Shown: positions 4,507 to 36,792 of the stretch, in pieces
Layout of the letters: each line of letters opens with the position of its first letter
How positions within the stretch are numbered: position 1 is the first letter of the stretch
Origin: an uncultured Candidatus Saccharibacteria bacterium
GTDB lineage: Bacteria; Patescibacteriota; Minisyncoccia; Phycocordibacterales; UBA1006
Direction: 5' to 3'
Assembly (NCBI GenBank): GCA_964464735.1
Contig: CAYXKF010000003.1
Coordinates: 3,808-67,807, forward strand
Length of the DNA: 64,000 nt
The notes under the pieces: model-generated
Told to the model about the DNA's origin: nothing
What the model saw: the letters and a program-made list of their open reading frames with translations, nothing else
The model's database searches: none
Position numbers and translations under genes: made by a program

Positions 4507-4510
4507 ATTA

Positions 4511-5452: not shown

Positions 5453-5473
5453 GAAGGATTTTTTGCTTCTAGG

Positions 5474-8276: not shown

Positions 8277-8738
8277 ATGGATATTTGTTTTTACCCGGCC
8301 ACACTATTTATGTATGCACTGCGCCACTCTGGCGTGCAAACTTTGTGCACCGACATACTACAGCGTTTTGCATTCGCCGGGCACTATTCATTAGCCACTT
8401 ACCTTGTTTATTTTGCCGTAACGTATGCGCTTGAGCTTCCGGCGTATTGGTTTTTCTTGCGAAACGATTTTTCATTTTTAAAGATCGCGCGCCTAACACT
8501 AGTAGTAAATATCCTGACCCACCCTATTGTTTTTTGGATTTTCCCGCGCATTGCGCTGATGCAGCAATGGAACACCCTTACTTATTTACTTGCTGCCGAA
8601 TTTTTTGCCTTTGCGGTCGAAGCGGCCGCTTTAGTATGGCTGTATAACGTCAAAGCGCCCCAAGCAATTGCCGGAGCGCTTATCGCAAATATCGTTTCGT
8701 GGCAGTTAGGGCTGATGATTCTGCAAAAAATACTTTAG
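8277..8738 (+). CDS. small polytopic membrane protein, hypothetical
   Basis: I trimmed the track ORF 8094..8738 to the in-frame ATG at 8277 (MDICFYPATLF...), because the N-terminal extension is antisense to the helicase gene. About four hydrophobic helices. It is the only plus-strand gene in the first 22 kb. Confidence 0.45.
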   Translation: MDICFYPATLFMYALRHSGVQTLCTDILQRFAFAGHYSLATYLVYFAVTYALELPAYWFFLRNDFSFLKIARLTLVVNILTHPIVFWIFPRIALMQQWNTLTYLLAAEFFAFAVEAAALVWLYNVKAPQAIAGALIANIVSWQLGLMILQKIL

Positions 8739-9058
8739 CTCGTTTGGTTTGCTGTTTTTGCATCAATCAACAACGAATCAATTTCTTTTTTCAGCGTTTC
8801 AATTTCGCCGATAACCATATGTTCAAAATTTGTCAGCCGTGCTTTTAGGTACGCAACTACTTGTTCGGGTTCGGCATTTTGATCGAACATCGTTCCCAGT
8901 TCGGCTTGCGATTCTTCGGGAAGCGTTTCAAGTGCTTGTATCATCACACCCTTAAATACCACTTCACCTACATTTGCCAGCATCTCTTCTTTTTGCGCAT
9001 CAGGAAGATGGTCAAAGTAGAATGCCTGCGCGATTTGTTGATTGATGTCGTTGGTCAT
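8735..9058 (-). CDS. small acidic hypothetical protein (107 aa)
   Basis: Clean ORF lying 28 nt downstream of the 1449-aa gene. Probably the last gene of the giant-protein operon. Confidence 0.5.
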   Translation of the reverse strand: MTNDINQQIAQAFYFDHLPDAQKEEMLANVGEVVFKGVMIQALETLPEESQAELGTMFDQNAEPEQVVAYLKARLTNFEHMVIGEIETLKKEIDSLLIDAKTANQTS

Positions 9059-9086
9059 ACTAATTTATATTATACACGAATAATAA

Positions 9087-12000
9087 TTATTGTGAGCGCT
9101 TTTCAGCAATCTTATTGACCAAGCTCTCGACCCACTGGTGCACTGAAAAGTTTTCAGGATATGCCATAATGGATACTCCATATACTTCTTGTTCCATGAG
9201 GTGAATCTGCTGTTGCAACTTTTCCACCATTGGCATTTCACCCATAAAATCGTTTGTCATAAAATCACGAAGTGGCACATATGTCTGCTGGTCACCTGCG
9301 ACAACCTGATAAAAGTTCGCAACATTTTCAGCGCTGCGGCCTAGGGCCAAGACTGGCTCAAAGATTTTCTCGGCTAGAATGTCCCTGTGCTCAAGGGTCC
9401 TTTCACTAAAGACATCCGCAGCTGCTAGACGTTCGATCGCCTCTTGCGCACCACGGTGGAGATTTTCAGGCGTAACAAAGGCAGAAACAACTTCGTTAGG
9501 ATTGGTATTTGTCGCAGCATTTTCAACTGCTGCCGCTGTAAGATTTTGTGGCGCCTCTTGCTTAATAATGCCTTCAGTAGCATCAGTTTGAACTGTATCA
9601 GTTGCTGTATTTGCAACTCCTTCGGTTACATCTTGCGGCGCAGCTTCAATCGGTGTAGTTTGCGTAATCACTTCGGGTGTCGCGCTAACCGTCGACATGC
9701 CCGGCGGAATTTCTTGTTTGATGATGCCCTCGGTAGCATTTACCACATTTGATGCACCGACCGGCGCAACCTGGTCAATCAGCCTTCCGTCAGGCAACCG
9801 CTCGTCAACCGTACTGGTTCCCTGTGGTACCTCTTGCTTAATGAGCCCTTCGTTTACTGGAGGCACCGGCGTTTGCGGTAGCACGCCCATTTTCTGCAAG
9901 CGCGCATATTCTTCGGGTGAATAATTATCGCGTGATACGCTGTTAAAGTTACTGATCTGGTCTTTAGTCAAAGCGTCAGCATTTTGTGCCGAGCCACCTT
10001 TTGGATCCCAGTACAAGGTGTCTTCTGTGCCGCCAGTTCCATACGACGGTTCAATGCGAGGGGTCGATGCAGCTTGCGATACCCCTGCAGGACGAACTTG
10101 TTGGTTGCCTGTTTGCGAACCATTAGTATGAGTATGGGTTCCAGGATTTGCATGATTATGCGTTTGCGCCGCGCCTTGGCTCATCGAACCTTGTTGCAAA
10201 GGAGCCCCCGCAGCTGCAGCTGTCGCCCTTGCCTTTTCTTCGACAGCTTGTTGTGGAGCACTATAATGTTCAAAGGATTCAAGATCAGTGCGCAGCGGGA
10301 ACCCAAGCATGTTCGCAAGCATCGGCGCGCTGTAATTGTTCATTGTTGGCGGTTGGTAAAAACCAAACTTCGAATGAAATTCGTCCAAGAATTGCGGTGT
10401 CAATTTATTTTCGGCAGCGCGCGCCATCAATTCAAGCGTTACTGCTTTTTGCTCAAGCGACATCTTGCCTTCGGGATACTCCATGATTGTTTGAACAAAT
10501 GCTTTTACCGGGTCAATGGTTGCCTTATTTCCTCCTGCATACAAGTTTGCAAGGAATTTGTCCCCGAGGTCGCGGTCACCATGGAACCAATACGAAGCTA
10601 CAAAACCATGGTCGGTATTAATGCGATCGCGCAGCAATAGATTAAGCGCATTTAGTGCCGGCGAATTTGGACGCGACAAAAATCCAAGCATTTCGTTGTA
10701 ACGCGCATTGCCGGTAAAGTGCGGGAAGTCGACATTTTCAAGCGCTTTAGGATTTGGTGCAGTCGCTGCATTCGTATCAATATTCGTATTGCCACCATTT
10801 TGGCCGCCCGCAGCACCTGGCACTGTTTGTTCAATTAAACCACTGCCAACTTTTGATCCACCAACAGGAACTTGCTGATTACCACCAGTGTTTGTAGTTG
10901 GGTCACTAGGCGTCGTGGTACTGCTTCCTTGCGGAACTTCTTGTTTAATAATACCTTCGTTGTCATTTGGCCCTGCATCAGTATGCGTATCGCTTGGCGC
11001 GCCATCATAGCGATGGAAGTATTCGTGTTTTTCGATACCCGCGGCACCGCCTTCGGTATGCGAACCATCAAGCGTTTCGATGATGCCGCCCTTTGCGTCA
11101 TATTCGACCGAAGTCATGTCGCCGCTACCGTCAAGCTTAAGCACATAAGCGGCACCGACATTATAGGTGCGCACTTCGCCCTCGGGCGTAATGTATCCAA
11201 ATTTTTTCGCAAGCTCGACTGCTTCGTGTCGCGCAAAACTATGCAAGTCATCGCCCGGCTTGTAACCCAATGCAGCCTGTAGCTTAGGATCGTGTTCGAT
11301 CTGGCGCATAAAGGCATACGTAATACCGTCGTTCGGGCGGATTTTTGCCTCAATAGGGATGTCAGGATTAGCCGTTGTTTCAGGTGCTGCCGCTGGAGTT
11401 TTTGGTGCAGGTGATGTTTGGGTATCGTCTGCGCTTTCTTTTGCAGACGGTGCCGGTGTTTCTTGTTTGGCTTCATCAGCAGCCGGTGCTTGTTCGTCAT
11501 GCTTAGGCTGTGCATTTGCGTCACTTGGGTGTTCGGTTGCCGGCGCTTCGGTAGTTGCCGGGTGCGAGCCAAGGTCGACACCGGTTTTTACCTCATGTGC
11601 ACCATGTGATACAGTTGCAGTATCTTGATGACCAAAAAGCTTATCCAAAATTGCTTGCGAATTATTTGCTTGAGATGCAGGCGTACCAGTCGCAACGGTA
11701 TCGATATGTGGTTCTTGCATTGCAATCGTATCAACCGATGGGTTTTGACCCAAAGCAGCTGCAACAGTATCGCGCGACTGCTGTCCGGCTGCAGCCTTTA
11801 GACTATCTTGTGCAGATACACCCCCATTAGTTTGATTACCGTGTTGAGCAACCGTGTCAGTCGAAGGCACGTGCACTTCTTCTTCGACACCCGTGAACGG
11901 ATTTCGAAAATGAATAACGTCCGAGATACCCTTCATAAGAGGCTGCATGTTCTTTGCCTGCTCTTTAAGTATTTCTTGCCCAGTGTCGGTGTGTTCAAGA

Positions 12001-13436
12001 ACAGTACGCGCGATAGAGCCAGCACCAAAAGCACCCAAGCGTGTCGCAACATTAGTTAGGTTTTTATACCATTCTTCCTTAAACTTTAATTGCGCCGCTT
12101 CGCGTTGTACATCGGCAAACGTTTTAGTACCTGCTTCAAGTTCCTTCGAAAGCGCTTCTACTTTTTCTTGGTAAGTACCGCCAGCACCAAATTCGTCTCC
12201 CACTTTCCATTTGGCCTTGCTGATAGCCAACTTTATAGCTGCCGAACTTGCCATCCCCGCACCGGCACCGATCAAAAGCGCAGGAGTAAATACCGCAGCC
12301 GCAGTACCGGCACCTGCAAGTGCGGCAACAATAGCGGCTTTTTTTGTACGCGGATACTTGTCGATCGCCGCCATAATCTTTCCTTTAATAGTATCGTTTT
12401 TTGTTTCCGAAGCATGTGACGGGGTTCCTTCAAGCATCGCCTTAACATCAAACGTTGTCCTGCGATGAGCAAGCCCGCCAATGACAGACGTTACTGCGCC
12501 ACCCGTAGTACCCATGATGCCGCGAAGCCCAAACCCAAGCGTGCCCCAAATTGCGCCACTACGCACTGCCTTGCCAATACCCCCCGTTCCATTAAACCAC
12601 TTAGTAAAACCGCGCACCACATCGCGCGCACTGTTATCAAGTGTCTTATCCAATTGTTCGTGCATGAACTTGCTTTCGGTTTCAGTCAAAACCAGCGCAC
12701 GGTGGTCAGTATTTGCCAACAACGCAAGAGTTGCCAGTCTTTTCTCGGTAGTCAGGATTTCCTTTTGTAAACGATTGACCTCGTTTTGGTCAACACCCGC
12801 AGGATTGCTCATCGCATCACTTAAGGCTTTTTTTCGCTCAGCCAGAAATTGTGTATAAAAAAGGTTTTTTGAATCCAAGCCCTCGGCAAGGATACGTTCG
12901 ATCTGCCGGTTCTTTAATATTTGATAGTCATTAAGCTTCGCTTCGTAGGCCGCTTTCGCTGCAAGCGCCTCTTGTTCGGTCTTTGGCTGAAATCCAAGGC
13001 CCGACATGATGCTTTTCTTGACTTTGATCCATGTTCCTTTGTTTGCCTGGCGTTCAGCCGCAAGATACGCCATTTTCAGTTGGCGCAATTCAGCCATCTC
13101 GACCGAATCGCCTGGCCGGGGCCGGGCACCATCAAGGGGCTTTGCCAGTTGCTGCTTTATGCGATCACGTTTTTCTTCGTCAGTTTCTTCTTGTATTGGG
13201 TTTAAGAGAGCTTCCTGCTCTTCAGGCTCCTCTTCACCCGCGACAGGCTCGACAACCGGCGATTGTTCCACCTGGGTAGTCGTTTGCTGATTGGTGGTAT
13301 TTAAATTGTTTAACAATTGATCAATTGCACCGGCAGTATTTTGCTGTTGAACCTCAAGACCCGCCACGGTGTTATTCGCAGCCTCTATTTGCTGGTTAAG
13401 ATTATTAAGTGCGCTTAGATCAGGAATTCGGTTCAT
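9087..13436 (-). CDS. giant hypothetical protein (1449 aa) with N-terminal coiled coil, glycine-zipper hydrophobic segments and an internal EG(I/L)IKQE(V/I/A)PQG repeat
   Basis: Long uninterrupted ORF. The N-terminus is Gln/Asn-rich coiled coil. Gly-rich helices (GGIGKAVRSGAIWGTLGFGLRGIMGTTGGAVTSVIGGLA; AAIVAALAGAGTAAAVFTPALLIGAGAGMASSAAI). A Pro/Thr/Ala-rich linker. A 4-fold peptide repeat (GIIKQEVPQG-like). A His-rich patch (HNHANPGTHTHT). Confidence 0.8.
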   Translation of the reverse strand: MNRIPDLSALNNLNQQIEAANNTVAGLEVQQQNTAGAIDQLLNNLNTTNQQTTTQVEQSPVVEPVAGEEEPEEQEALLNPIQEETDEEKRDRIKQQLAKPLDGARPRPGDSVEMAELRQLKMAYLAAERQANKGTWIKVKKSIMSGLGFQPKTEQEALAAKAAYEAKLNDYQILKNRQIERILAEGLDSKNLFYTQFLAERKKALSDAMSNPAGVDQNEVNRLQKEILTTEKRLATLALLANTDHRALVLTETESKFMHEQLDKTLDNSARDVVRGFTKWFNGTGGIGKAVRSGAIWGTLGFGLRGIMGTTGGAVTSVIGGLAHRRTTFDVKAMLEGTPSHASETKNDTIKGKIMAAIDKYPRTKKAAIVAALAGAGTAAAVFTPALLIGAGAGMASSAAIKLAISKAKWKVGDEFGAGGTYQEKVEALSKELEAGTKTFADVQREAAQLKFKEEWYKNLTNVATRLGAFGAGSIARTVLEHTDTGQEILKEQAKNMQPLMKGISDVIHFRNPFTGVEEEVHVPSTDTVAQHGNQTNGGVSAQDSLKAAAGQQSRDTVAAALGQNPSVDTIAMQEPHIDTVATGTPASQANNSQAILDKLFGHQDTATVSHGAHEVKTGVDLGSHPATTEAPATEHPSDANAQPKHDEQAPAADEAKQETPAPSAKESADDTQTSPAPKTPAAAPETTANPDIPIEAKIRPNDGITYAFMRQIEHDPKLQAALGYKPGDDLHSFARHEAVELAKKFGYITPEGEVRTYNVGAAYVLKLDGSGDMTSVEYDAKGGIIETLDGSHTEGGAAGIEKHEYFHRYDGAPSDTHTDAGPNDNEGIIKQEVPQGSSTTTPSDPTTNTGGNQQVPVGGSKVGSGLIEQTVPGAAGGQNGGNTNIDTNAATAPNPKALENVDFPHFTGNARYNEMLGFLSRPNSPALNALNLLLRDRINTDHGFVASYWFHGDRDLGDKFLANLYAGGNKATIDPVKAFVQTIMEYPEGKMSLEQKAVTLELMARAAENKLTPQFLDEFHSKFGFYQPPTMNNYSAPMLANMLGFPLRTDLESFEHYSAPQQAVEEKARATAAAAGAPLQQGSMSQGAAQTHNHANPGTHTHTNGSQTGNQQVRPAGVSQAASTPRIEPSYGTGGTEDTLYWDPKGGSAQNADALTKDQISNFNSVSRDNYSPEEYARLQKMGVLPQTPVPPVNEGLIKQEVPQGTSTVDERLPDGRLIDQVAPVGASNVVNATEGIIKQEIPPGMSTVSATPEVITQTTPIEAAPQDVTEGVANTATDTVQTDATEGIIKQEAPQNLTAAAVENAATNTNPNEVVSAFVTPENLHRGAQEAIERLAAADVFSERTLEHRDILAEKIFEPVLALGRSAENVANFYQVVAGDQQTYVPLRDFMTNDFMGEMPMVEKLQQQIHLMEQEVYGVSIMAYPENFSVHQWVESLVNKIAEKRSQ

Positions 13437-13502
13437 ATAATTAGGCAGTTACATTGTAATACAAAGCGGTTAATAAGCAATTTTATGGGCTTATCTTGGC
13501 AC

Positions 13503-16500
13503 CTATTTTTCAATAAGCTTAGCACCAATACCCTTAAGGTAGGTGTTAATATTATCGGTATTTTTCGAATAATTTTTTGTAATCTTAAGCAAGTCGCCAA
13601 CTTCTTCGACAATACCCGCTTTTTCCAATTGGGTGACAATTGCATCACGACGAGGAATAGGAAGACCAAGTTCAATTCCTAATTTTGTAATATCGATTCC
13701 CTTACTATTAGCAGCAAGAATTTTTTTAACCACATCGGTAATTTTTTCATCAACAGCTTCTTTGTTTTCAAGAGGCAACCCAAGTGCCTTAAGTTCGTTA
13801 TCGAATAGTGCATTGATCGAAGCTTTGGCCAAATCCATTGATTTCGAAATAGTGGTATATTCTTTGCCCTTATTATCTTTTGTGATAGCAATATATTTTC
13901 CGTCTTTTAAATTAATACTATTTAAAGCATCGGCACGGCGCTTTTCAATATCAGCTTTTTTCGCTTCAAGGTCGTCAGCAGTTTCTTCTTTTTTTCCATC
14001 AACCAAAGCAAGTTCAGTATCGATAATTTGTTCGATTTTTTCCAATTTATCTTGATTACCCAAAAGCCAGTGAGAAATCATACTTTCGAGCCGAACCGTT
14101 ACTCCACGGTCAGCATAGGTATACTTGCTTGAAAGTAGTTCTTCCACCTTGCCTAGACCACCAACTTTTTCAGCAAGCAGCACGATCTTATCAACTAAAA
14201 CAGACGTAAGAATCTCAAGAGCTCTTTTATCTTTATTGTACAAAGCCTGAACTTTCGGCAATTCTTTTTTTGCATTCTCGACAGCCTGATCCCCTAGCGT
14301 GGCGTTACTAATCCACGGCCCGCCAAGATGCTGATAGGTTCCCGAATCAGCATATGATCCATCGGGATTTAGCCGGATAAAGATATTAGTATCAGGTACA
14401 AGATATTCTCTTTTCTCTAAAATCTTTTTGATCATTTCAATCGTCTTTACTACTGCCTCGGGCCTTGGTCGTTCTTTGATATCAGCATCTTGCGTCTCGA
14501 TATCGTCCACTGGATCATCCGCATCGATTCCCCGTCGTTCTTCTTTCGATTGTTTTGAACCAGCCCCATCTCCTAAAAACTTGACTGCAACCGGTTTTAT
14601 TACTTGCCATACACCATTTACTAGTTGTGCTTCGCCGTAAGCAACTAATTGAATCTTTTTCGTATCGCTTGTTGGTTTATTGAGAAGCATAACGCTTGGA
14701 TTATTAAGATAGTATTCCCAATTGCCGTCAGTAAAGACATATTTTTGAACGCTTGGATCTTTTGAGATTCCCAAAAACGCCTTATGATCCTCTTTTTGGA
14801 CTAACAATTCAAAAATCTGTTCGCCGTTTGAGGCTTTGCGTGCATCAATCGAATTAAATCCTCCATTGACCGGGATTTTACAATACAATTTATGAGTAAA
14901 TGGCGGCTCGACGGGTTCAATTGTTTCTTTTTTCTCATCAACTGTCGGCGCATCGCCCCAATACATCTCGCCGCCACTTTCAAGTACTAATTTTCCATTC
15001 TCAGTTTTATAAATAATCGGTTTTGTAACGGTAATTTTAGACGGGCACTCTTTTGGTTGTGCATTTAATATCTTAAAAACATTATACAAAATGAGTTCAG
15101 GTGAAGCATACGCGGCGGCAAGGGCACGCTTGGTATTTGCGAAGGTCATTTCCATTCGACCATTTGGCAACGCTTTTCCATGATAAAATATAGAGGATTC
15201 ATCTTCTGGAGACATTTGTGCTACAGAGATAGGAAAACTTCCATCGGCATTAGGAATTGGAAAATACCAGATTTTGCCTTTGGTTTCTTTTTGTTCGGGA
15301 CTATTGGCATTAAGACCCTGCAAAGCGTCGTCAAGGCGCTTATCATATGCAAGGTAATTATCAATCTTGATTTCAAAAGGCAAAGTTTGGGCTTCGGCAA
15401 CATATTGTTCCTTAATGCCCTTAAGTTTTACATCAAGATCATTATATTCAATACCTGACGACAAGTAGTCCTTAAATTCTTGACCATAGCGATGTCCTGA
15501 AATCCCTCGTTCGCGCACAGCTTCATTCAGTGAATCATAAAATCGTTTATTAAAATCTTGTTCAATGATTGTTTTCCCACGGTTCTTTAATTTATGCTCA
15601 AAAGACTGTGCTATCTCATGCATTTGCACAAATGCAACTTTATCCATATCAGGCAACTTTTGCCCTAATATATTTTTTACATTTTCAAATTTCCTCGCAA
15701 CATCATTATATGTCCCGGTTAATTCATTTTCAGCATATAATTTTGTCCATTGAGCAGCCACGTCCGACAACTGTGCGATTTGAGTTCCTTTATAAGTAAT
15801 TGCCGTAGGTGTTACCTCATAGTCACTTGTTCCAACCTTTCCTAACGGAAGGTCCAGTGCATATTCCAATGTTTCTGTTTTCGCCTTTTTCTCGAAACGA
15901 TAATCAATAACCCCGCCCATTCCTTTTTCGGCTTTTAGTTCGTAACCAGCAAGTTCGCTCCAGGTTGCTAAGTCGTCGGCAACTTGTTTGTCAGTGGTCG
16001 TAAACGAACCGTTTTTAATTTGCTGAATAAACGACTTACGCACTGCTTCGCTGTATTTAGGATGCGCCTGTTTTTCAACAAGCTGTAATTGGCCAAACGC
16101 GTAAGCCTTAAATAGTTCGTCTTTTGGATACGTCTTAATAACACCCGATGCATTTTTTAGTTCATAACCCCTAGCTCCCGACGAAGCTAACGCGTAAGTG
16201 TCGCCATCGACAACAAAATCGTGCGTAGAAATTGCGTTTAAAATATATGTCTTAATACTTGCAGCTACTTTTTTATACTCCTCTTCGCGCGCATCATTAA
16301 GATCCTTAAGTTGCTGTTTGGCGTTTTGCAATTTTTCGGCACCTTCTTGCTTAACACGCTGTAGCGTCGCAACAAGTTCGGCGTTTGTTTTTGGAAGACT
16401 GTCGGCAGCAAGTCCAAGCGCAGCAAGCTGCTCGTTTGTCATGCCCTTAAACATGTCGGCGATTTTTTGCGCTTCGGCATCAATGGTATTGGCATCAAGG

Positions 16501-16664
16501 GACGCGTCTAATTGCTGCATCGCAGCAAGTACCGTTTCGTCTTTTTCAAGTGCTTTCTTTTTGGCCTCGATATTCTTTGCATGCGTAATTGCCTGCTCGA
16601 GCATGTTGGGGGTTACCCCTTTTTCCTTAAGCATTTTTACCAAGTCGCGTGCTTCAAAACCCAT
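13503..16664 (-). CDS. giant hypothetical protein (1053 aa) with C-terminal winged-helix resembling the FtsK gamma domain
   Basis: Long ORF with no Walker motifs. The C-terminus (ITKLGIELGLPIPRRDAIVTQLEKAGIVEEV) resembles the FtsK-gamma / wHTH consensus (..LQR.L.IGY.RAAR.ID.LE..GIV). Confidence 0.75.
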   Translation of the reverse strand: MGFEARDLVKMLKEKGVTPNMLEQAITHAKNIEAKKKALEKDETVLAAMQQLDASLDANTIDAEAQKIADMFKGMTNEQLAALGLAADSLPKTNAELVATLQRVKQEGAEKLQNAKQQLKDLNDAREEEYKKVAASIKTYILNAISTHDFVVDGDTYALASSGARGYELKNASGVIKTYPKDELFKAYAFGQLQLVEKQAHPKYSEAVRKSFIQQIKNGSFTTTDKQVADDLATWSELAGYELKAEKGMGGVIDYRFEKKAKTETLEYALDLPLGKVGTSDYEVTPTAITYKGTQIAQLSDVAAQWTKLYAENELTGTYNDVARKFENVKNILGQKLPDMDKVAFVQMHEIAQSFEHKLKNRGKTIIEQDFNKRFYDSLNEAVRERGISGHRYGQEFKDYLSSGIEYNDLDVKLKGIKEQYVAEAQTLPFEIKIDNYLAYDKRLDDALQGLNANSPEQKETKGKIWYFPIPNADGSFPISVAQMSPEDESSIFYHGKALPNGRMEMTFANTKRALAAAYASPELILYNVFKILNAQPKECPSKITVTKPIIYKTENGKLVLESGGEMYWGDAPTVDEKKETIEPVEPPFTHKLYCKIPVNGGFNSIDARKASNGEQIFELLVQKEDHKAFLGISKDPSVQKYVFTDGNWEYYLNNPSVMLLNKPTSDTKKIQLVAYGEAQLVNGVWQVIKPVAVKFLGDGAGSKQSKEERRGIDADDPVDDIETQDADIKERPRPEAVVKTIEMIKKILEKREYLVPDTNIFIRLNPDGSYADSGTYQHLGGPWISNATLGDQAVENAKKELPKVQALYNKDKRALEILTSVLVDKIVLLAEKVGGLGKVEELLSSKYTYADRGVTVRLESMISHWLLGNQDKLEKIEQIIDTELALVDGKKEETADDLEAKKADIEKRRADALNSINLKDGKYIAITKDNKGKEYTTISKSMDLAKASINALFDNELKALGLPLENKEAVDEKITDVVKKILAANSKGIDITKLGIELGLPIPRRDAIVTQLEKAGIVEEVGDLLKITKNYSKNTDNINTYLKGIGAKLIEK

Positions 16665-16696
16665 AGCTGCAATTATACATGGTTTACTGTTTCATG

Positions 16697-17992
16697 CTAT
16701 CGCAAAATAGTGCGAAGCTGGTCGTCCGTCATCGACTTAACGGTTGCCGTGTCCGAACTGTAAGCGTTGATCTCGATATGCAAATGCTGACCGTGCCCCG
16801 GCTGGCTTGCATTGATGCCGGTATGACCAACGGTACCAATTGTAGCGCCTGCAGTGATCGCATCACCCGGCTTTACCTTTACCTGCTCAAGATGCGCATA
16901 GCGGTAAAAATAATTTTTATCTGGGTTATACATAATGACCGTATTTCCGCCCTTCATCGAGCTGGTCGAAAGCGAATCGTCCTTGGTCCACGAACTTTCC
17001 GCCAAGACTACAATGCCGCGTTCCATGGCGTTAACAGGATTTCCTTCGTGCGTAAACAAATCAAGCGCGTCGTGATGGTTTTCGCCCGCTCCAAAACTAA
17101 ATACCTTAAGTGGCTTAGTGCCCGCAATATCAGCTATTTGCGCATCATAAAAGCGTTTTCCCAGGTATTCGATATATTTTTTGCGCACATCTTTGGTAAC
17201 ATACGGCGATATTTCGCGCACAATAATTGATTGCGGAGTCAGCGAATCGTGTGCCTTATGATACACATATTCGTCCGAATAATATAACACTGATACCACG
17301 TACGGGTTTGCCAACGCGATTTCAGGGCTTTCGCCCGAAGCTATTTTAGAAAGCGTATCGCGGGCATTGGCAATGATGGTTTCCATACGCTGGCGCATTT
17401 CGATAGAAAACTGTTCCATCCCTTTTTGGTTTATCGGATGAATATCAGCTGACGTACTTTCTGACGGTTGGGTTTTTGCATCCTTTGTGTGGCCAGGATT
17501 ATTTTTGGATGTTTTTTTGTCACTAGAATCATCTAACAGTTCACTAATGCCATAGGCGCCCGCCGCAGCGGCGACGGCGCCTATGCCAAGGAACTTTAAA
17601 AACTTGCCGCGTGGCATAGTACTTGTTTCGTTTACCGGCGCTTGATGCGTATCGGTATCGACTAAAGCTGACTCGTCTACTGTATTAGTATTTTCTTGCA
17701 CCACAGCTTCTCCTGCAGTATCTTCAGCAATTGGATTATCAATCTTTGCATCTTGTTGATCTGTCGATGCTGGGTTTAAAAGAGCCTCAAGTTCTTTTCT
17801 TTGCTGCAAGACGCTGCGTTCAAGATCGGCAAGATATGCTTCAAGTTCGATTTTATTTTTTGGAGTGCGATCACCAAGATTAATACCTTTGTTTGCCAAA
17901 AACTCCCTGATCTTTTTTGCTTCAGCGGTTTCAACATTATTGTTTGGTATGACATTTTCCCGCACCATAATAAGCAAGGGTTGCTTACGCAA
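16697..17992 (-). CDS. membrane-anchored M23 family metallopeptidase (LytM-like)
   Basis: C-terminal M23 signature with the HxH motif (GATIGTVGHTGINASQPGHGQHLHIEI). A central TM helix (FLGIGAVAAAAGAYGI). The N-terminal region is coiled coil. Confidence 0.85.
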   Translation of the reverse strand: MRKQPLLIMVRENVIPNNNVETAEAKKIREFLANKGINLGDRTPKNKIELEAYLADLERSVLQQRKELEALLNPASTDQQDAKIDNPIAEDTAGEAVVQENTNTVDESALVDTDTHQAPVNETSTMPRGKFLKFLGIGAVAAAAGAYGISELLDDSSDKKTSKNNPGHTKDAKTQPSESTSADIHPINQKGMEQFSIEMRQRMETIIANARDTLSKIASGESPEIALANPYVVSVLYYSDEYVYHKAHDSLTPQSIIVREISPYVTKDVRKKYIEYLGKRFYDAQIADIAGTKPLKVFSFGAGENHHDALDLFTHEGNPVNAMERGIVVLAESSWTKDDSLSTSSMKGGNTVIMYNPDKNYFYRYAHLEQVKVKPGDAITAGATIGTVGHTGINASQPGHGQHLHIEINAYSSDTATVKSMTDDQLRTILR

Positions 17993-19580
17993 ACTTTACT
18001 GCCAACGTATCGCTTTTTAATTTAATGCGTGCAATCTTTTTGCCAAGCTTCCCTTCAAGATATTCTTTAAGCTTGTCACCCAAGCTGTTTAATTGATCAA
18101 GAGGGATTTTTGATTTCACTAAACTATTCGCATCGATCTTAAGACTTTTTGGATCAACGGCAATGGTATCATCTTGATTATCGATTATCGCAAAGATATG
18201 GGGGCTCCCAACAGCAAGACCTTTTAGCCCAACACCTTCGAACTGCGCATTAATGTGCCAATTTAATACTCCTGCGTCGATGTGCAAACTTGAAAGCTTT
18301 ATAGGCTGACCTTTTATGACATTAGCTAGAAGATTTTTTATTTCTGCTTCGATATCACGTACAGCATATTCGACATCAAACTTATTTCGCTCGATTTCTT
18401 CAGCAATGGCCTTATCACCGACTTCAGGCTGCTCAAGCATGTTGTTTTGCCTAAACCATTCAAGGGCGTCCTTGTCTGATGTGAAGGAAAAATGTTTAGG
18501 CTCTACACCAGACATAATAGCCAAGATTTCCTGAAAACCGGCACCGCCCCGGCGAAGCATGGTTTCAAGTGTTTGCCCATGATTACTCCACGCATAAATT
18601 TCGTACGGAAGTATCGTATCCCATTTTATAAAATATGCATTAGGATATTCACTGCTCATGATTGGATATCCTTTTGGATATTTTTTCTTCATGTATTCTA
18701 GTTTTTCCGCGTACGGCAATTTAAATGAATTAAAATCGATACCCGAAGAGTCTTTCATTTCCATATACGTAATACCTCCGCGGACTTTTGTATGTGGATA
18801 TTTTTCAAGATGAGCCCTAAGAAGCTTTTGTATTTCAGGATCAAGCGCTGCAACATCTTCTATGGTTACATTACTTTTTGATTTAAGTTTTTCACTGATT
18901 AAATTCAAAGATTCGATGCCCATGTCGCGCGCTAAATTATGAGGCACTCCAAATTGGTTAAGCTTGTTTGCAGTTTCTTGCTCGGCAGATTCACTAATAA
19001 CCTCAGGTTCTTCTTTTTTATCTTCAGACGTAGTTTCTTCGACAACAGGCGCAGCTTCTACTACTGGTTCAATCGGAGCAATTGGCTGTTCGTCTTTTAT
19101 TTCTTCTTTACTTGATTCCTCTTCTTTAGGAGTTTCTTCGACAACAGGTTCAACTGATTCAGCGACAGGAGCTACCTCATCCACAGCTGGCATTTCTTCA
19201 GCTGCTGGTTTTTCGGCTTCGTTAAATAACTGCATCATTTCATCGAGCTCGGCTTTTGTTTTTGGCCAAACCTCAGTAGGAATATCACTGATATCTATTT
19301 TAAGCGTGTTTACCAAATATGCTTTTAGATCTTCGATATTAAACTCAATCGGTTCAGATTCGACGACTGGCGTAGAAACTTCAATAACCGGAGTTTCACT
19401 AGCAGCTGCCACTTCGGCTTCCCTTGCCTTTTCTTCTGCCTCTTTTCTACGCCGTTCCATTTCGGCAGCTGCCCTTTGCTTTGCCACTGCTTCCGCTCGC
19501 TTAAACGCAGCTCGAAACTGTTCGGCCGTGATGCCTTTTTTATTGTTCTCGACTGCAAGTTTGTTTGGATTGAACATCAT
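17985..19580 (-). CDS. hypothetical protein (531 aa) with acidic Glu/Pro/Val-rich N-terminal low-complexity region
   Basis: Clean ORF overlapping the downstream gene by 8 nt and starting 5 nt after the upstream stop. The PVVE/EEPE repeat region is followed by a globular C-terminal domain. Confidence 0.7.
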   Translation of the reverse strand: MMFNPNKLAVENNKKGITAEQFRAAFKRAEAVAKQRAAAEMERRRKEAEEKAREAEVAAASETPVIEVSTPVVESEPIEFNIEDLKAYLVNTLKIDISDIPTEVWPKTKAELDEMMQLFNEAEKPAAEEMPAVDEVAPVAESVEPVVEETPKEEESSKEEIKDEQPIAPIEPVVEAAPVVEETTSEDKKEEPEVISESAEQETANKLNQFGVPHNLARDMGIESLNLISEKLKSKSNVTIEDVAALDPEIQKLLRAHLEKYPHTKVRGGITYMEMKDSSGIDFNSFKLPYAEKLEYMKKKYPKGYPIMSSEYPNAYFIKWDTILPYEIYAWSNHGQTLETMLRRGGAGFQEILAIMSGVEPKHFSFTSDKDALEWFRQNNMLEQPEVGDKAIAEEIERNKFDVEYAVRDIEAEIKNLLANVIKGQPIKLSSLHIDAGVLNWHINAQFEGVGLKGLAVGSPHIFAIIDNQDDTIAVDPKSLKIDANSLVKSKIPLDQLNSLGDKLKEYLEGKLGKKIARIKLKSDTLAVKFA

Positions 19581-19585
19581 ATATA

Positions 19586-22084
19586 TTATGCGTTTTTAGC
19601 CTCAACGCTGTAACGACCATCAGGATTTTTGATCTCTTTAAGAATGTCCTCGGCCGGTTCTTTTGAATACACTTGGTCTCCGTCGATTTTTCGCATGTGT
19701 ACCATTAATTTCCCGTCAACATTTTTTTTGATTTCATTTATTTTTAACAATGCCCCTGTCTTAGTCTTTAAAAGCACATTCGCAAATAGCTTTGCCGCTT
19801 GATCCGAAGAAATTTCGCTGTTGGTTTTTAAAATCTCGGCAACCCAGCGGGTATTAGTGTCAAGCGCTGACAAATCTTCTTTTGCCTCGATTGGCCGATC
19901 TTCGACTGCCGGGTTAACTTCTTCTTCGTTTTCTAAAGCTTCAGGTACACCTTCGACAATCTCGATATATGCAATTTGGTCACCAGTTTTTAGTGTCGAA
20001 CCTTCGGCAACGGTAAAGTGAATAATACCTTCTTCGGGCGCTTTCCATTTTATGGGACCGGCAAGAGTCATAAATTCGGCAATCTTATCCCCTTTCACGA
20101 CAGGTTTTCCATCAGCTATAAGATATTTAGTTAATGTAATTTGAGCTTCTTTTTCGTTTGCAAACGCCCGCACTTCTACCATTTTAGGAGCATCGTCACT
20201 GGTTTCTTCTTGCTCAGGGACTGGCGCATGTTCTTGCACCGATTCTTCTGGGTTAGTAACAGGCTCATCTTCTACTACTGGTTCTTGAACAGAATTTTCT
20301 ACTTTTGTTACTTTTGCCGCTTCTACTGCAGCATTTTCTTTTGCTTGCAGGTGCGCACCAAGCGAAGAAACAACCGAACCAAGCGTTTCGTGCGCTTTCA
20401 TTTTATGTTCTACCTGAAGCAATTCGGTAAAGTTTTTAGGAAGTTCGTCATCTGAAAACTGAGAAACATCAATGCCCAGGTTTTGGTATTCTGTGCAAAG
20501 CGCCTCAACCAAAAATTGCCGTTCAAGAATTTCTTGTTCAGAATATTTTTGCTCAAGCGGATTCACAACTTTTCTATCAGCCAAAGTTTTCTTCAAAAAT
20601 CCTACACGTGCTTCAAGAAGTTTGTTGCGAATTTCGTCACGAATTTTTATCAATTCGTTCACATGTTTGGCATTGGGCTTTTTATTTGCACTTTCAATTT
20701 CGGCATCAATCTTTTTCAGATCACGTTCAAGCTCTTGAATCGGCTGATCAGGATGCACAATGGTTTTTTCAGCAACGGTGTCGGCATAGTTTACATCAAA
20801 ATCCACATTCGGAGATTTGGCATATTCTTTAGCAAGGCGCTCCCTGATTGCGCCTAACTCATATTTCTCGGCCCGTGAGCGCTCTTCCTCTTCAGTTCTG
20901 CTTGTTACAGAAAGGTTATTCACTAATAAAAAGTTCTCAATGTCTTTATAGGCAATAATAAAATCTTTACCGTTAACATACTTCTTTTTCGAATCATCGT
21001 AATCGCGTTCAATAAACCGTACATACCATTTACCAAGGCCATCAATGAAAAACTTTTTCGTTTTTGAATCACCCCCTACCGGCGAAGACTCCGATAATTC
21101 CACACCAAGACGAAGCACGACATATTTTCGGGATTGTTCCAAAAATATTTTCTTGTCCGGAAACTTCCTCTCTTGAGCACGCAGTTCCTTAAACTCATTT
21201 TGGCGTTCTTTTAATCTTTCAGCATAACCATCAGCGGCATCCAGCTTTCCAGATTCTTTGGCCATTAACACTAGCATCTCAAGGTCCTGGATTTCTTCTG
21301 CTAAGCGATCAGGCGAATGGGCACGCTTAAATGCAGCATGCTGTGGTTCAGTAAATTCATGCCGAACTAGATAGTCATGTAAGTTTTTATCTCGACTATG
21401 ACGCTGGACCGTATCAATGTGTACCTGCTTCATACTATTAAGCGTGAAGTCAGGTCTTTGAATGTCTTTTTGACGAAGAAGTTCACGCATAACTTCTTTC
21501 AGCGCCAAACCATAGCGCTTTGAATTTGTCGAAGCAGGGAGTTCGCTAAACTCATCGACTAGCCGAAGCATATTATCAACCGACGAAAAATAATACTTTT
21601 TAAATTCATCGAAGCTTGAATAGGCTTTTTGCAATCTTTTGATGCGATACTCTTTGTCTTTTTTCTCATTATCAGTTTTTGCCGAACTTGCTTCGACTTG
21701 GATTTTTCTGATAAGACTATTAGCTATATCACCCTTGAATTTTTCATACAAAAACCTGAGTGTTCGCTTAAGAACCTCTCGGTCATTACCAATAACGTTT
21801 TCGATTGAAAAGGGTTGTTTTTGGTGCAATGCAGCGCTGGCAACTTTTTTATACTTCGTTTTATCAACAGGAGTACTCATTCGCTCCAAAGCACGTTTAG
21901 CCTCATTGTCCTGTTTGCTCTTTTCATCAGCGCTGAGCGCTTTAATAAACTCTATTTCTTCTCGTGTTTCTGGTTTAATGGGAAAGTTTTTTAAATCTAA
22001 GCCAGCCTTATACTTTAAACGTACATGCGAGTCGTTTTTATTAAGAGAGCGGGAGCCAGTTGAGATAATTTCTTCTCGAGGCAT
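19586..22084 (-). CDS. hypothetical protein (832 aa) with biotinyl/lipoyl-like hybrid-barrel segment near the C-terminus
   Basis: First gene of the minus-strand operon. Contains a segment (KGDKIAEFMTLAGPIKWKAPEEGIIHFTVAEGSTLKTGDQIAYIEIVEG) resembling a biotinyl/lipoyl-like barrel fold. The rest is charged coiled-coil-rich sequence. Confidence 0.7.
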   Translation of the reverse strand: MPREEIISTGSRSLNKNDSHVRLKYKAGLDLKNFPIKPETREEIEFIKALSADEKSKQDNEAKRALERMSTPVDKTKYKKVASAALHQKQPFSIENVIGNDREVLKRTLRFLYEKFKGDIANSLIRKIQVEASSAKTDNEKKDKEYRIKRLQKAYSSFDEFKKYYFSSVDNMLRLVDEFSELPASTNSKRYGLALKEVMRELLRQKDIQRPDFTLNSMKQVHIDTVQRHSRDKNLHDYLVRHEFTEPQHAAFKRAHSPDRLAEEIQDLEMLVLMAKESGKLDAADGYAERLKERQNEFKELRAQERKFPDKKIFLEQSRKYVVLRLGVELSESSPVGGDSKTKKFFIDGLGKWYVRFIERDYDDSKKKYVNGKDFIIAYKDIENFLLVNNLSVTSRTEEEERSRAEKYELGAIRERLAKEYAKSPNVDFDVNYADTVAEKTIVHPDQPIQELERDLKKIDAEIESANKKPNAKHVNELIKIRDEIRNKLLEARVGFLKKTLADRKVVNPLEQKYSEQEILERQFLVEALCTEYQNLGIDVSQFSDDELPKNFTELLQVEHKMKAHETLGSVVSSLGAHLQAKENAAVEAAKVTKVENSVQEPVVEDEPVTNPEESVQEHAPVPEQEETSDDAPKMVEVRAFANEKEAQITLTKYLIADGKPVVKGDKIAEFMTLAGPIKWKAPEEGIIHFTVAEGSTLKTGDQIAYIEIVEGVPEALENEEEVNPAVEDRPIEAKEDLSALDTNTRWVAEILKTNSEISSDQAAKLFANVLLKTKTGALLKINEIKKNVDGKLMVHMRKIDGDQVYSKEPAEDILKEIKNPDGRYSVEAKNA

Positions 22085-22091
22085 AGTTGGT

Positions 22092-22120
22092 ATTTTAATA
22101 TATTACTTGACCTAAGTCAA
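22092..22120 (-). promoter_or_regulatory. sigma70-like promoter (TTGACT-17-TAAAAT) for the giant-protein operon, predicted leaderless
   Basis: The -35 is at 22120-22115 and the -10 at 22097-22092 (minus strand). The ATG of the 832-aa gene at 22084 is 7 nt downstream of the -10. The -35 is embedded in the inverted repeat TTGAC-ctaa-GTCAA (22107-22120). Confidence 0.55.
22107..22120. promoter_or_regulatory. inverted repeat TTGAC-CTAA-GTCAA overlapping the -35 of the operon promoter (candidate operator)
   Basis: 5-bp perfect arms with a 4-nt spacer, seen directly in the sequence. Confidence 0.35.
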
Positions 22121-23963: not shown

Positions 23964-24383
23964 ATGAAATTTACATTTAACCCATTTAGCTCTGAAAATA
24001 AGGCATCTAAGAAAGATGACAAAGAGGATCCTATCGAGCTTCAGCTTGGTAAAGACAATCCAAAGATAAGTGAACTAAAAGATATTCAAGAAACCCACAA
24101 ATCACTTTTAAAGTTTGAAAAAATATCCGAAGAGGAAGTGCGCGACACCGTTCCCGAATTATTTGCCGAGACGCGCGACGAAAAATATAAAGACTGCCAA
24201 TTTTATAAATTTATTAAAGCACAGATCAGTAACGATATATTCGAATACCAAGCAATCGGCGATGTTCATACGACCGACGAACAATACGGCGTGGTATTAA
24301 GCATCCGCACTGCATTTGGAAAACCGATTGGCGAAGTAAAAGAAATGATCATCAAGGTCGATACTGCCCCCAATCAAAACTAA
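23964..24383 (+). CDS. hypothetical protein (139 aa), Lys/Glu-rich
   Basis: Clean ORF, convergent with comM and overlapping its stop by 4 nt. Confidence 0.45.
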   Translation: MKFTFNPFSSENKASKKDDKEDPIELQLGKDNPKISELKDIQETHKSLLKFEKISEEEVRDTVPELFAETRDEKYKDCQFYKFIKAQISNDIFEYQAIGDVHTTDEQYGVVLSIRTAFGKPIGEVKEMIIKVDTAPNQN

Positions 24384-27413: not shown

Positions 27414-27458
27414 GTGTGATTTTTATTTTACGACATTAAACGCTATACTATGCGTATC

Positions 27459-36534: not shown

Positions 36535-36605
36535 TGCGGATAGGGAGAATCGAACTCCCGTCTCGTCCTTGGCAAGGACGCATTCTACCACTAAACCATA
36601 TCCGC
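36535..36605 (-). tRNA. tRNA-Gly (anticodon GCC)
   Basis: Manual cloverleaf fold gives acceptor GCGGATA/TATCCGC, anticodon stem CGTCC/GGACG with loop TTGCCAA, and T-arm GGGAG-TTCGATT-CTCCC. 71 nt, no encoded CCA. A divergent promoter TTGCAC-16-TATAAT lies just upstream. Confidence 0.85.
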
Positions 36606-36720
36606 GACGAAAGCGATTATAGCAAGAAACCGCAGTTGTGCAACTTTTTGCTTGAGTTGCACGGGTTTTATGCTATTATCAGCAGCGTAATGCATCGTTT
36701 GAGCAATCAAAAGATGTATA

Positions 36721-36792
36721 TGCCCTCGTGGTGAAATGGATATCACAGCGGTCTTCGGAACCGTTATTCTGGGTTCGAGTCCTGGCGAGGGC
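36721..36792 (+). tRNA. tRNA-Arg (anticodon TCG), probable
   Basis: Acceptor GCCCTCG/CGAGGGC, D-stem GTGA/TCAC, anticodon stem GCGGT/ACCGT with loop CTTCGGA, T-loop TTCGAGT. The T-stem has two G-U pairs, so the anticodon call is moderately confident. Confidence 0.7.

Follow-up and report, generated by a model that had tools for sequence, protein, structure and literature searches.

An enlarged, lineage-specific version of a membrane-protein gene cluster kept across the ultrasmall Patescibacteria

What brings together six co-directional genes, most of which encode large proteins that match no named family? In the window (the whole stretch of DNA that was analysed, 64,000 nt), all six of the minus-strand open reading frames previously proposed to form one operon were found, with products of 832, 531, 431, 1053, 1449 and 107 aa in the order of transcription. 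These genes are real, and represent an enlarged, lineage-specific version of a cluster that is kept across the ultrasmall Patescibacteria (CPR). The four large proteins that could not be named at first have no match in Pfam, NCBIfam, PHROG or PADLOC, and every protein of the cluster is acidic (pI 4.3-5.8) and remains a singleton when clustered at 90% identity.

Boundaries and transcription of the cluster

The junctions between the genes, given earlier as -8 to +66 nt, measure +5, -8, +32, +66 and +28 nt, although the first of these becomes +8 nt when the public gene calls are followed, given that they start the 531-aa gene one codon later, at the ATG at 19577 (530 aa), rather than at the ATG at 19580 from which the +5 was computed. 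The claim that the unit continues into the helicase gene without a break does not hold, as 538 nt separate the stop of the 107-aa gene (8735) from the ATG of the helicase (8196), and this gap contains a convergent plus-strand gene for a 153-aa polytopic membrane protein (8277-8738), an exact product in the public gene calls, which bounds the unit and separates the cluster from the helicase. At the opposite end, the divergent gene of a membrane-anchored hydrolase with two LysM domains and an M23 domain is present as described (22310-23416, plus strand), in a position that is kept in eight genome loci. A ComM gene (24380-25906) and a tyrosine recombinase gene (27450-28367) are also found nearby.

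The first-pass annotation placed a strong leaderless promoter at the head of a single transcript. The sequence TTGACT-17-TAAAAT does occur there (22092-22120, minus strand), with 7 nt between the end of the -10 box and the ATG of the 832-aa gene (22084), but the match by itself is not above chance (27 promoter-like sites observed in the region, 32.7 expected). Its position gains meaning only from a window-wide enrichment of -10 boxes immediately ahead of start codons (17 of the 50 starts have one close by, against 5% of control ATGs); a Shine-Dalgarno site precedes one start in the 50, and the organism looks broadly leaderless. A CATAAT is also found 7 nt before the 531-aa gene ATG (19577), a TATAAT (16672-16677) 7 nt before that of the 1053-aa gene, and a second TATAAT (9069-9074) 10 nt before that of the 107-aa gene. 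Given that these three genes have -10 boxes of their own, a single leaderless transcript of the six was not borne out, and one transcript for the whole cluster is doubtful.

The large membrane protein and its conserved neighbourhood

The 1449-aa protein (9087-13436, minus strand) is a large membrane protein of a conserved Patescibacteria neighbourhood, and consists of an N-terminal coiled coil, a Gly-rich region, a Pro/Thr-rich linker, an alpha/beta domain of ~115 aa, repeats, and a long C-terminal extension. The Gly-rich hydrophobic helices, the linker and the internal fourfold repeat (EGI[IL]KQE at residues 827, 1196, 1236 and 1288) are all as originally described. The closest relative, encoded in the locus L001, is 33% identical over 1009 aa, and the Gly-rich, putatively membrane-embedded region (FT.WFNGTGG.GKAV.SGA…; residues ~283-405, 12222-12590, minus strand) is the best-conserved stretch between the two. 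The N- and C-terminal regions have no detectable homology beyond L001, and the protein is tied to its wider family only through the ~115-aa domain and the overall architecture.

This domain (G.GI..AF.RQIE…GY…E.RV…AY.L…YEY; residues ~692-808, 11013-11363, minus strand) is common to 76 other protein clusters and belongs to no Pfam family, and its confident AlphaFold2 model (pLDDT 87) matched no known fold, including those of a viral structure library. As it also forms the C-terminal part of proteins that begin with a signal peptide, it is probably extracytoplasmic, on a membrane topology that is read from hydropathy only; if just two helices, each a single pass, crossed the membrane, the domain would be in the cytoplasm.

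The conservation of the gene order, which had been proposed as a check, is found across the Patescibacteria. In nine of the ten genome loci retrieved with the ~115-aa domain, all of them from Patescibacteria (Paceibacterota, Nomurabacteria and Saccharibacteria), the large membrane protein is followed by PcrA, with a DUF5663-like gene in between in seven of the nine, and most of these loci run on into RsmA, 313-like and 951-like genes. A divergent LysM-M23 gene lies upstream in eight genome loci, and the conserved order is then LysM-M23, 0-4 variable genes, the large membrane protein, DUF5663, PcrA and RsmA, an order that is also present in three metagenome contigs. That the cluster expands a conserved Patescibacteria locus had escaped the first reading.

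The last gene of the cluster (8735-9058, minus strand) encodes an acidic helical protein of 107 aa that gives no match to the Pfam PF18908 model at E values up to 10, but aligns along its whole length with eight homologues that are encoded at the same place in the genome, each of which matches this model. Judged from this alignment, it is a divergent member of DUF5663 (PF18908), a Patescibacteria-enriched core family without known function. For Southlakia epibionticum, the DUF5663 genes are listed as core genes enriched in Patescibacteria, and Tn-seq calls both SEML1_0162 and its immediate upstream neighbour, a hypothetical gene of 767 aa, essential (PMC10633639 Table S1); the essential SEML1_0161 is a literature lead to a putative counterpart of the 1449-aa protein.

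The same neighbourhood bears on a phage origin, in which the cluster would derive from a prophage, as a degraded tail or ejection module, or from another mobile element, with the 1449-aa protein acting like a tape measure and the M23 protein as a virion lysin. The coiled coils, Gly-rich hydrophobic helices and M23 domain at one locus do recall tape-measure proteins, PHROG tail and lysin families match the M23 domain, and a tyrosine recombinase gene lies nearby, but the M23 domain of the cluster is a separate protein, in a conserved chromosomal locus with no phage context. None of the five non-M23 proteins matches PHROG, a tblastn search against 50,697 phage records gave no match, IMG/VR yielded no relatives, the viral structure library no fold match, and no capsid, portal or terminase gene is present; moreover, distant Patescibacteria have the cluster in the same slot, between LysM-M23 and PcrA-RsmA. 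A phage or mobile origin is thus very improbable, and the phage tail module that had been offered as an alternative is rejected, given that its PHROG matches come through M23 only and that the backbone is syntenic across Patescibacteria.

Accessory proteins and their shared motif

The remaining four proteins differ in how widely they are found. The 832-aa acidic coiled-coil protein (19586-22084, minus strand) has no transmembrane segment or signal peptide, and its C-terminal domain (residues 743-830) is conserved in L001; the lipoyl-like barrel of the first reading corresponds to a sub-threshold Pfam match in this protein (residues 651-707, E 0.044, 14.1 bits with the cutoff at 22.1). The 1053-aa coiled-coil protein (13503-16664, minus strand) also has no transmembrane segment, and the sole homologue found is P0002 in L001. 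Its tail has a winged-helix-like pattern by eye, with a best PDB match at E 0.33, and the FtsK-gamma-like winged helix of the first reading found no support. As the 832- and 1053-aa families were found in one other contig only, the expanded part of the cluster could be an addition confined to this lineage, with some other role.

The 530/531-aa acidic protein (17985-19577, or to 19580 with the first ATG, minus strand) carries the acidic PVVE-type repeats noted earlier, and its C-terminal domain of ~135 aa is encoded beside the large membrane protein in four other loci; in a fifth, L011, the two are fused, with the domain at the N-terminal end of the membrane protein and preceding its membrane helices (E 2.8e-14). 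The 431-aa protein (16697-17992, minus strand) is a putatively bitopic M23 metallopeptidase, with an N-terminal tail of ~125 aa, a hydrophobic anchor (residues ~130-152, RGKFLKFLGIGAVAAAAGA) and the expected M23 domain (residues 306-410; Pfam score 66.1 bits, cutoff 28.7; HDALD and HLH motifs). An exported M23 protein in L010 is 39% identical to it over 268 aa, without the tail.

In four loci, the slot beside the membrane protein is occupied by a wall enzyme, either M23 or YkuD, which is membrane-anchored or exported. L001 has homologues of all five large genes, at 26-41% identity overall (the 531-aa protein is 41% identical over 174 aa), with the wall-enzyme and 1053-like genes in swapped order. 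The enzyme in this case is a YkuD L,D-transpeptidase (Pfam score 25.8 bits, cutoff 23.4), and its N-terminal tail and that of the 431-aa M23 protein are homologous. In the Saccharibacteria locus L009, a bitopic YkuD shares its N-terminal 90 aa with a neighbouring soluble protein (E 1e-14).

A motif of ~45 aa, G[IL][DN]L…P[KR][TNS]xxE[LWF], is present in exactly one copy in the 832-aa protein (…NLGIDVSQFSDDELPKNFTELL…; residues ~520-566, 20387-20527, minus strand), the 531-aa protein (residues ~75-120), the N-terminal tail of the M23 protein (residues ~18-64) and the 1053-aa protein (residues ~62-108), and in one copy in each of the four L001 counterparts, including the YkuD enzyme. The 1449- and 107-aa proteins do not contain it, nor do the other proteins of the window that were checked (313, 951, LysM-M23, 433 and 212 aa); by our own estimate, chance alone would give ~0.05 matches in the four proteins. 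A comparison of the motif with the PDB returned nothing interpretable, and the SAP, HeH and Rho-N structures were not matched. The sharing of the motif by four proteins had gone unnoticed in the first-pass annotation.

These results weigh on the view that the genes have no common function, being unrelated, fast-evolving neighbours by descent that share only an acidic coiled-coil composition. Several of the genes do have their own -10 boxes, most of the sequence is of low complexity, and the 832- and 1053-aa proteins are almost without relatives; however, the view is rather unlikely in the face of one motif carried by four proteins here and by four in L001, the recurrence of the gene set in L001 despite the low identity, the domain fusion in L011, and the wall-enzyme tail common to a neighbouring protein in L009.

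Possible roles and closest known systems

Our tentative preference, held at somewhat less than an even chance, is for an envelope-spanning, Patescibacteria-specific scaffold that docks wall-remodelling enzymes, here in an unusually expanded form. Its core would be the 1449-aa protein together with the small DUF5663 protein. In the former, the coiled coil would be cytoplasmic, the Gly-rich helices would sit in the membrane, the linker would be long and flexible, and the ~115-aa domain would be extracytoplasmic; to this core the lineage would have added the soluble acidic coiled-coil 832-, 531- and 1053-aa proteins and the membrane-anchored M23 endopeptidase. The ~45-aa motif may be the docking module through which the scaffold proteins and the wall enzyme, by its cytoplasmic tail, are tied to one common partner, either the DUF5663 protein or the cytoplasmic portion of the 1449-aa protein. 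Cleavage of the cell's own peptidoglycan by M23, or its cross-linking by YkuD in the relatives, could then be positioned from inside the cell, in the service of growth, shaping or division, with the divergent LysM-M23 hydrolase acting alongside. Of the earlier proposal of a cell-envelope or cell-cell contact apparatus, the envelope part stands in outline, through the membrane-protein family, the M23/YkuD slot and the LysM-M23 hydrolase; none of the evidence is specific to cell-cell contact.

The fast divergence and the variable gene content fit a host-interaction role equally well. In such an apparatus, the membrane protein would display its extracellular domain and long C-terminal extension on the surface of the epibiont, where they would bind a host bacterium, and M23 or YkuD would act on the host wall instead of the cell's own. 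The divergence is very fast indeed (singletons at 90% identity, a closest relative only 33% identical), the genes between LysM-M23 and the membrane protein vary from locus to locus, the L001 YkuD also scores against a Tlde1 effector-type model, below threshold (E 6.6e-4), the ~115-aa domain recurs in secreted multi-domain proteins, and essentiality in Southlakia was measured in growth on the host. On the other hand, the wall enzymes have short membrane tethers and cytoplasmic tails, which suit action beside the cell's own membrane, three cluster proteins have no export signal, adhesin-type repeats were not detected in the family scans, and the core is kept in Paceibacterota, Nomurabacteria and Saccharibacteria, whose hosts differ or are not known. 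We consider this apparatus unlikely.

A chromosome-membrane tether or DNA-handling complex is a further reading. Its coiled-coil proteins would bind DNA and so connect the envelope with the nucleoid or with incoming DNA, which would account for the nearby ComM and for the conserved proximity to the PcrA helicase gene, a linkage that is tight and same-strand in nine genome loci and three metagenome contigs. P0002 carries a helix-hairpin-helix domain like that of the RNA polymerase alpha C-terminus (Pfam E 4.7e-13), and the winged-helix-like pattern in the 1053-aa tail points the same way; but the 1053-aa protein itself does not have the alpha C-terminal-like domain, no window protein has a significant match to a DNA-binding family, all of the cluster proteins are acidic, the shared motif does not match the SAP, HeH or Rho-N structures, and the PcrA/RsmA linkage may be mere inherited gene order, all of which makes a DNA-related role improbable.

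Returning to the scaffold of wall-remodelling enzymes, a parallel is offered by LmdC of Hyphomonas neptunium, which is reportedly a membrane-anchored M23 protein with a cytoplasmic N-terminal tail. In the pair formed by the bactofilin BacA and the bitopic M23 endopeptidase LmdC (PMC10945521), the likeness is that a membrane-anchored M23 enzyme with a cytoplasmic tail could couple to a cytoplasmic scaffold, and thereby position wall hydrolysis. This would be an analogy, with no homology: the cluster has no bactofilin (DUF583) or known cytoskeletal family, its scaffold candidates being unrelated acidic coiled coils, its putative coupling motif is also present in these scaffold proteins themselves, and it includes a large polytopic protein with an uncharacterised extracellular domain.

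The FtsEX-EnvC, FtsEX-PcsB and FtsEX-RipC systems likewise tie the cytoplasm, through a transmembrane complex, to a coiled-coil or LytM-type (M23-type) hydrolase, and a LysM-M23 protein is encoded alongside the cluster. The coiled coils of the cluster, however, would be cytoplasmic, and no energy source is evident. There is no ABC ATPase or FtsX-like permease in the cluster and no FtsE/FtsX pair among the window proteins scanned, which take in a part of the unassigned ORFs. Families of type IV secretion components (VirB4, coupling protein, VirB6, VirB3/PrgI and VirB8) were likewise not detected in the cluster or the other window proteins scanned; the monoderm-type T4SS of Patescibacteria (bioRxiv 10.1101/2025.01.22.634366) nevertheless resembles the cluster as an envelope machine of this group, with loci that also encode large hypothetical proteins bearing wall-hydrolase domains, the annotations of Southlakia SEML1_0006/0007 being an example.

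The conserved locus of the 1449-aa membrane protein

The six minus-strand ORFs listed by the first-pass annotation are all present exactly as described, with matching sizes and coordinates. In the order of transcription, these are the 832-aa ORF (19586-22084), the 531-aa ORF (17985-19580; the public gene call starts at ATG 19577), the 431-aa M23 ORF (16697-17992), and the 1053-aa (13503-16664), 1449-aa (9087-13436) and 107-aa (8735-9058) ORFs, separated by junctions of +5, -8, +32, +66, and +28 nt. The cluster represents an expanded form of a genuine Patescibacteria module that is conserved and has no earlier description; M23 and DUF5663 are the only described families to which any of its components belongs, and its function is inferred. 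In a set of about 15 billion proteins clustered at 90% identity, each of the six remains a singleton, and all are acidic (pI 4.3-5.8) and rich in coiled-coil-like segments. None of the four large proteins has a match in Pfam, NCBIfam, PHROGs, PADLOC, or the PDB sequences (for the 1053-aa and 832-aa proteins, PDB profiles as well), and the same is true of the 107-aa protein. No PADLOC model of anti-phage defence matched any of the six.

Residues 100-1070 of the 1449-aa protein, used as the query of an exhaustive HMMER search, brought up 77 proteins (its own cluster among them), all of them through a single stretch about 115 aa long, at query residues ~570-720 (protein residues ~670-820; 692-808 by a local HMM), which is a domain of the form G.GIEHAF.RQIE…GY…YEY. 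It occurs in two architectures, type A, in which a coiled coil is followed by Gly-rich membrane helices, a linker, the domain, and a tail, and type B, in which an N-terminal signal peptide and beta-rich domains precede the domain at the C-terminus. Hydropathy and domain positions assign the type A layout to the window protein and to most of its 12 positional homologues, and the signal peptide of the type B proteins argues that the domain is extracytoplasmic. An AlphaFold2 model built on a 30-sequence alignment (pLDDT 87.3, pTM 0.83) begins with three helices and continues into a five-stranded sheet, for which the best Foldseek match in the PDB, the PepSY-like protein YpmB, is not significant (E 0.11). 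Given that the viral structure library, Pfam, and a profile search of PDB sequences also returned nothing, the predicted fold is treated as absent from the libraries searched (PDB and viral structures).

Outside this domain, the N-terminal and membrane region is only faintly similar across the family (E 3e-5 at best), and the idea that the 1449-aa protein and other members have homologous C-terminal tails found no support. A second copy of the domain lies in L006, a related locus, in a 652-aa protein (18290-20248) past the 951-like gene, so that the domain recurs inside the same conserved neighbourhood. A 1529-aa protein with the domain is also encoded, with no adjoining PcrA, at 912-5501 of L014, a 6.4-kb contig binned as 'uncultured Gammaproteobacteria' which is probably a misbinned Patescibacteria contig.

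The domain alignment led to ten genome loci, nine of them from Patescibacteria (Paceibacterota, Nomurabacteria, and Saccharibacteria), and the contexts of these loci and of three HMMER matches reveal a common gene order: a divergent LysM-M23 gene, zero to four variable genes, the type A membrane protein, a ~100-aa protein in most loci, and PcrA, followed, where the contig reaches, by RsmA and the homologues of the 313-aa and 951-aa proteins. The 1449-aa gene occupies the family's position, upstream of DUF5663-PcrA-RsmA and downstream of the divergent LysM-M23. In the window, the PcrA/UvrD helicase (which starts at ATG 8196 in the NCBI gene calls for the 92,803-bp contig), RsmA, the 313-aa membrane protein, which bears acidic repeats of the TSP3 type, and the secreted, Gly/Ser-rich 951-aa protein form a minus-strand block at 1651-8196. 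As far as the contigs reach, this block keeps its order downstream of the membrane protein in most Patescibacteria loci, and DUF5663 stands between the two in most of them. The window differs in an extra convergent gene ahead of PcrA, encoding a 153-aa polytopic membrane protein (8277-8738, plus strand; an exact product in the NCBI and Logan gene calls), whose stop overlaps that of the 107-aa gene and for which neither a Pfam family nor a counterpart in the related loci was found. The supposed unbroken run of the cluster into the helicase is interrupted by this gene. The identity of PcrA and RsmA to those of all these loci is 38-46%, which indicates that the window organism is a Patescibacterium without a close sequenced relative. 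In L002, a related metagenome contig, the UvrD/PcrA helicase adjoining the membrane protein (2901-5972) contains an intein, according to a precomputed Pfam Intein_splicing match.

A reading of the cluster as a degraded phage tail or ejection module is barely credible: the PHROG matches arise only through the M23 domain, no tblastn match to phage records was found, three viral-contig scans of IMG/VR and the viral structure library yielded nothing, and the genes sit among housekeeping flanks in a locus order that the related loci conserve.

The ~100-aa protein is DUF5663 (PF18908) in eight of the nine aligned sequences (best E 2e-6). The 107-aa protein is 24-30% identical to these positional homologues (BLAST E 1e-10 to 4e-14), has no direct match to PF18908 even at E up to 10, and DUF5663 itself matched no PDB sequence or profile. 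Table S1 of PMC10633639 marks the Southlakia epibionticum genes for DUF5663, SEML1_0162 and SEML1_0163, as core and Patescibacteria-enriched, and Tn-seq there calls essential both SEML1_0162 and the 767-aa hypothetical directly upstream, SEML1_0161. A DUF5663 gene and the large gene beside it are thus called essential by the one Tn-seq data set that exists for Patescibacteria, and if the upstream gene belongs to the same membrane-protein family, these would be growth-essential genes of unassigned function. Literature searches on DUF5663 and on the conserved PcrA/M23 cluster found nothing relevant.

Wall enzymes, soluble proteins and their shared motif

The 431-aa protein does carry the M23 domain claimed for it, with PF01551 (Peptidase M23) scoring 66.1 bits against a cutoff of 28.7 at residues 306-410. 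The zinc-binding and catalytic motifs of LytM/M23 enzymes, HxxxD and HxH, are both present, as HDALD (residue 307) and HLH (residue 403). The divergent hydrolase gene (22310-23416, plus strand) also agrees with its first description, its membrane-anchored product combining two LysM domains with one M23 domain. In this protein the first zinc-ligand motif reads FHDKYRAKDYG instead of a plain HxxxD, with HLH intact, which may point to a LytM domain of the activator type or to a variant one.

The slot of the wall enzyme in the cluster is filled differently in the relatives. In L001, a Logan contig (SRR25018350) with the same five large gene types, the enzyme is a YkuD L,D-transpeptidase, which has in common with the window M23 only the N-terminal tail, where the shared motif lies ahead of the membrane anchor. 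The Saccharibacteria locus L009 has a bitopic YkuD (membrane segment 124-148) whose N-terminal 90 aa are common to the adjoining soluble protein (E 1e-14), and L010 has an exported M23, 39% identical, with a twin-arginine-like signal and no tail. If true, a swap between M23 and YkuD behind a retained cytoplasmic tail would be an unusual case of modular wall-enzyme recruitment.

The shared motif, about 45 aa long, ends in G[IL][DN]L…P[KR][TNS]xxE[LWF] followed by a helix. It is found exactly once in each of the 832-aa, 531-aa, M23, and 1053-aa proteins and once in each of the four L001 counterparts, is absent from the 1449-aa, 107-aa, and other window proteins checked, and occurs in only one other protein among all the retrieved loci; by our estimate, its core would be expected by chance about 0.05 times in the four window proteins that carry it. 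Its reading as a SAP/HeH/Rho-N DNA-binding motif was not supported, as the PDB profile search gave only weak sugar-binding look-alikes (E 0.17 or worse), and there was no profile similarity to the solved SAP, LEM, and Rho N-terminal domains in PDB sequences.

The genes of L001 follow the order 832-like C-terminus, 531-like, 1053-like, wall enzyme, and 1449-like, so that the enzyme comes after the 1053-like gene, and in the window before it. The 531-like protein is 41% identical over 174 aa and the 1449-like protein 33% over 1009 aa. The C-terminal domain of the 531-aa protein (~135 aa) is present in this 531-like gene and again in the gene that directly precedes the membrane protein in L004, L005, and L007; L011 has it as an N-terminal fusion to the membrane protein, before the membrane helices. 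Such a fusion is a classical indication of a functional link, here with the membrane protein, and its position indicates that the domain is on the cytoplasmic side. The domain had no match in PDB sequence or profile searches, and a single-sequence AlphaFold2 model of the whole 531-aa protein was unusable (pLDDT 42.9). Three observations speak against the idea that the six genes are unrelated neighbours, which is accordingly quite unlikely: the shared motif, the L011 fusion, and the reappearance of the gene set in L001.

The 1053-like protein of L001, P0002 (2149-5355), contains an RNA polymerase alpha C-terminal-like domain at residues 519-574 (Pfam E 4.7e-13), from which, together with the linkage of the locus to PcrA and ComM, a tether of DNA or the nucleoid might be proposed. 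This proposal is decidedly improbable, given that the domain occurs in P0002 only, the window 1053-aa protein being without it, and that no significant DNA-binding family was found in the window proteins. The FtsK-gamma-like winged helix once assigned to the 1053 C-terminus could not be recovered, with no Pfam match at E up to 10 and a best winged-helix-like PDB match at E 0.33. For the biotinyl/lipoyl-like barrel of the 832-aa protein, residues 651-707 have a similarity to PF00364 (14.1 bits, E 0.044) that is below the cutoff of 22.1, and the L001 homologue lacks the domain. Read by eye, EFMTL stands in place of the modifiable lysine of (A/S)MK(M), so that the region would be at most a cofactor-less barrel.

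Word-indexed protein searches returned the 1053-aa protein and P0002 only, the 1449-aa protein alone with its alignment, and one 179-aa fragment with the alignment of the 531 C-terminal domain, near-empty results which probably reflect the swamping of the candidate lists by low-complexity words. Scans of genome contigs with the 1449-aa protein, and of metagenome contigs with the 1449 and 1053 alignments, gave no match.

A possible role in the cell envelope

The best-supported picture, as read from the sequences, would be that of an envelope-spanning complex. Its core may consist of the type A membrane protein and DUF5663, with the divergent LysM-M23 as a constant neighbour and either M23 or YkuD in the variable slot, and the soluble coiled-coil proteins would be additions specific to this lineage. 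The shared motif may tie these soluble proteins and the cytoplasmic tail of the enzyme to a common partner, and wall cleavage or cross-linking would thereby be placed from inside the cell. The observation in the first-pass annotation was largely right and its envelope reading right in outline, even if several details were wrong.

Action on the cell's own wall is favoured over attack on a host because the enzymes are membrane-anchored on short tethers and the relatives have a cross-linking YkuD. On the other hand, a host-contact apparatus would fit the fast divergence and variable gene content of the locus, and the cytoplasmic tails and soluble proteins fit it less well, which leaves it unlikely. 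Placement of wall enzymes from within would resemble the working principle of bactofilin-LmdC and FtsEX-EnvC, although the Pfam and NCBIfam searches found no bactofilin (DUF583), FtsE ATPase, or FtsX permease in the cluster; since none of the defining proteins is present, the likeness is one of analogy and not of membership. As for a monoderm type IV secretion system, a Pfam scan of 47 window proteins yielded no VirB4, VirB3, VirB6, or VirB8-like family.

A more far-reaching version of the envelope-spanning complex can be put forward tentatively, in which the membrane protein and DUF5663 would form a phylum-wide, possibly essential envelope machine found only in Patescibacteria, of which the window would hold the most elaborate known form, with accessory scaffolds and interchangeable M23 and YkuD enzymes recruited by one docking motif. 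The Patescibacteria account for a large part of bacterial diversity and their envelope biology is largely unknown, and the conserved multi-gene module, with its domain without a known fold and its shared motif, offers a testable wiring diagram.

Transcription and translation starts

The promoter proposed for the cluster, TTGACT-17-TAAAAT, is present on the minus strand at 22120-22092, 7 nt ahead of the 832 ATG at 22084. Promoter-like sites in the region number 27 against 32.7 expected, so this match is not above chance by itself. It gains credibility from the enrichment of -10 boxes near starts across the window, where a box matching at least five of six positions and ending 3-12 nt upstream (most commonly 7 nt) precedes 17 of 50 ORF starts, compared with 5% of control ATGs; examples are the hexamers at 22092-22097, 19585-19590, 16672-16677, 9069-9074, and 8204-8209. 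A leaderless reading of the 832 promoter is plausible on these patterns. The single transcript proposed along with it is undermined, given that several genes have a -10 box of their own: the 531 start is preceded at 7 nt by CATAAT, the 1053 start at 7 nt and the 107 start at 10 nt by TATAAT, and within the cluster only the M23 gene, with its 8-nt overlap, and the 1449 gene are without one.

A Shine-Dalgarno-like site was found at only one of the 50 window starts, and in the related loci, nearly all from Patescibacteria, -10 boxes precede 35 of 109 starts and Shine-Dalgarno sites six. Initiation in this organism appears to be largely leaderless or Shine-Dalgarno-independent, a subject on which a literature search for Patescibacteria found nothing relevant, and the near-absence of such sites together with frequent leaderless starts affects gene calling in these genomes.

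Finally, some other features of the window may be recorded. A XerC/D-type tyrosine recombinase gene (27450-28367, plus strand) and a cluster of three tRNA genes (36535-37587) lie near the locus, with no sign that they bound a mobile element. A 592-aa protein (38461-40239, plus strand) has treble-clef zinc fingers at both ends and a middle without an assigned domain, and the trigger factor (58344-59390, minus strand) is only 348 aa long and shows its N- and C-terminal domains, a PPIase domain not being detected.
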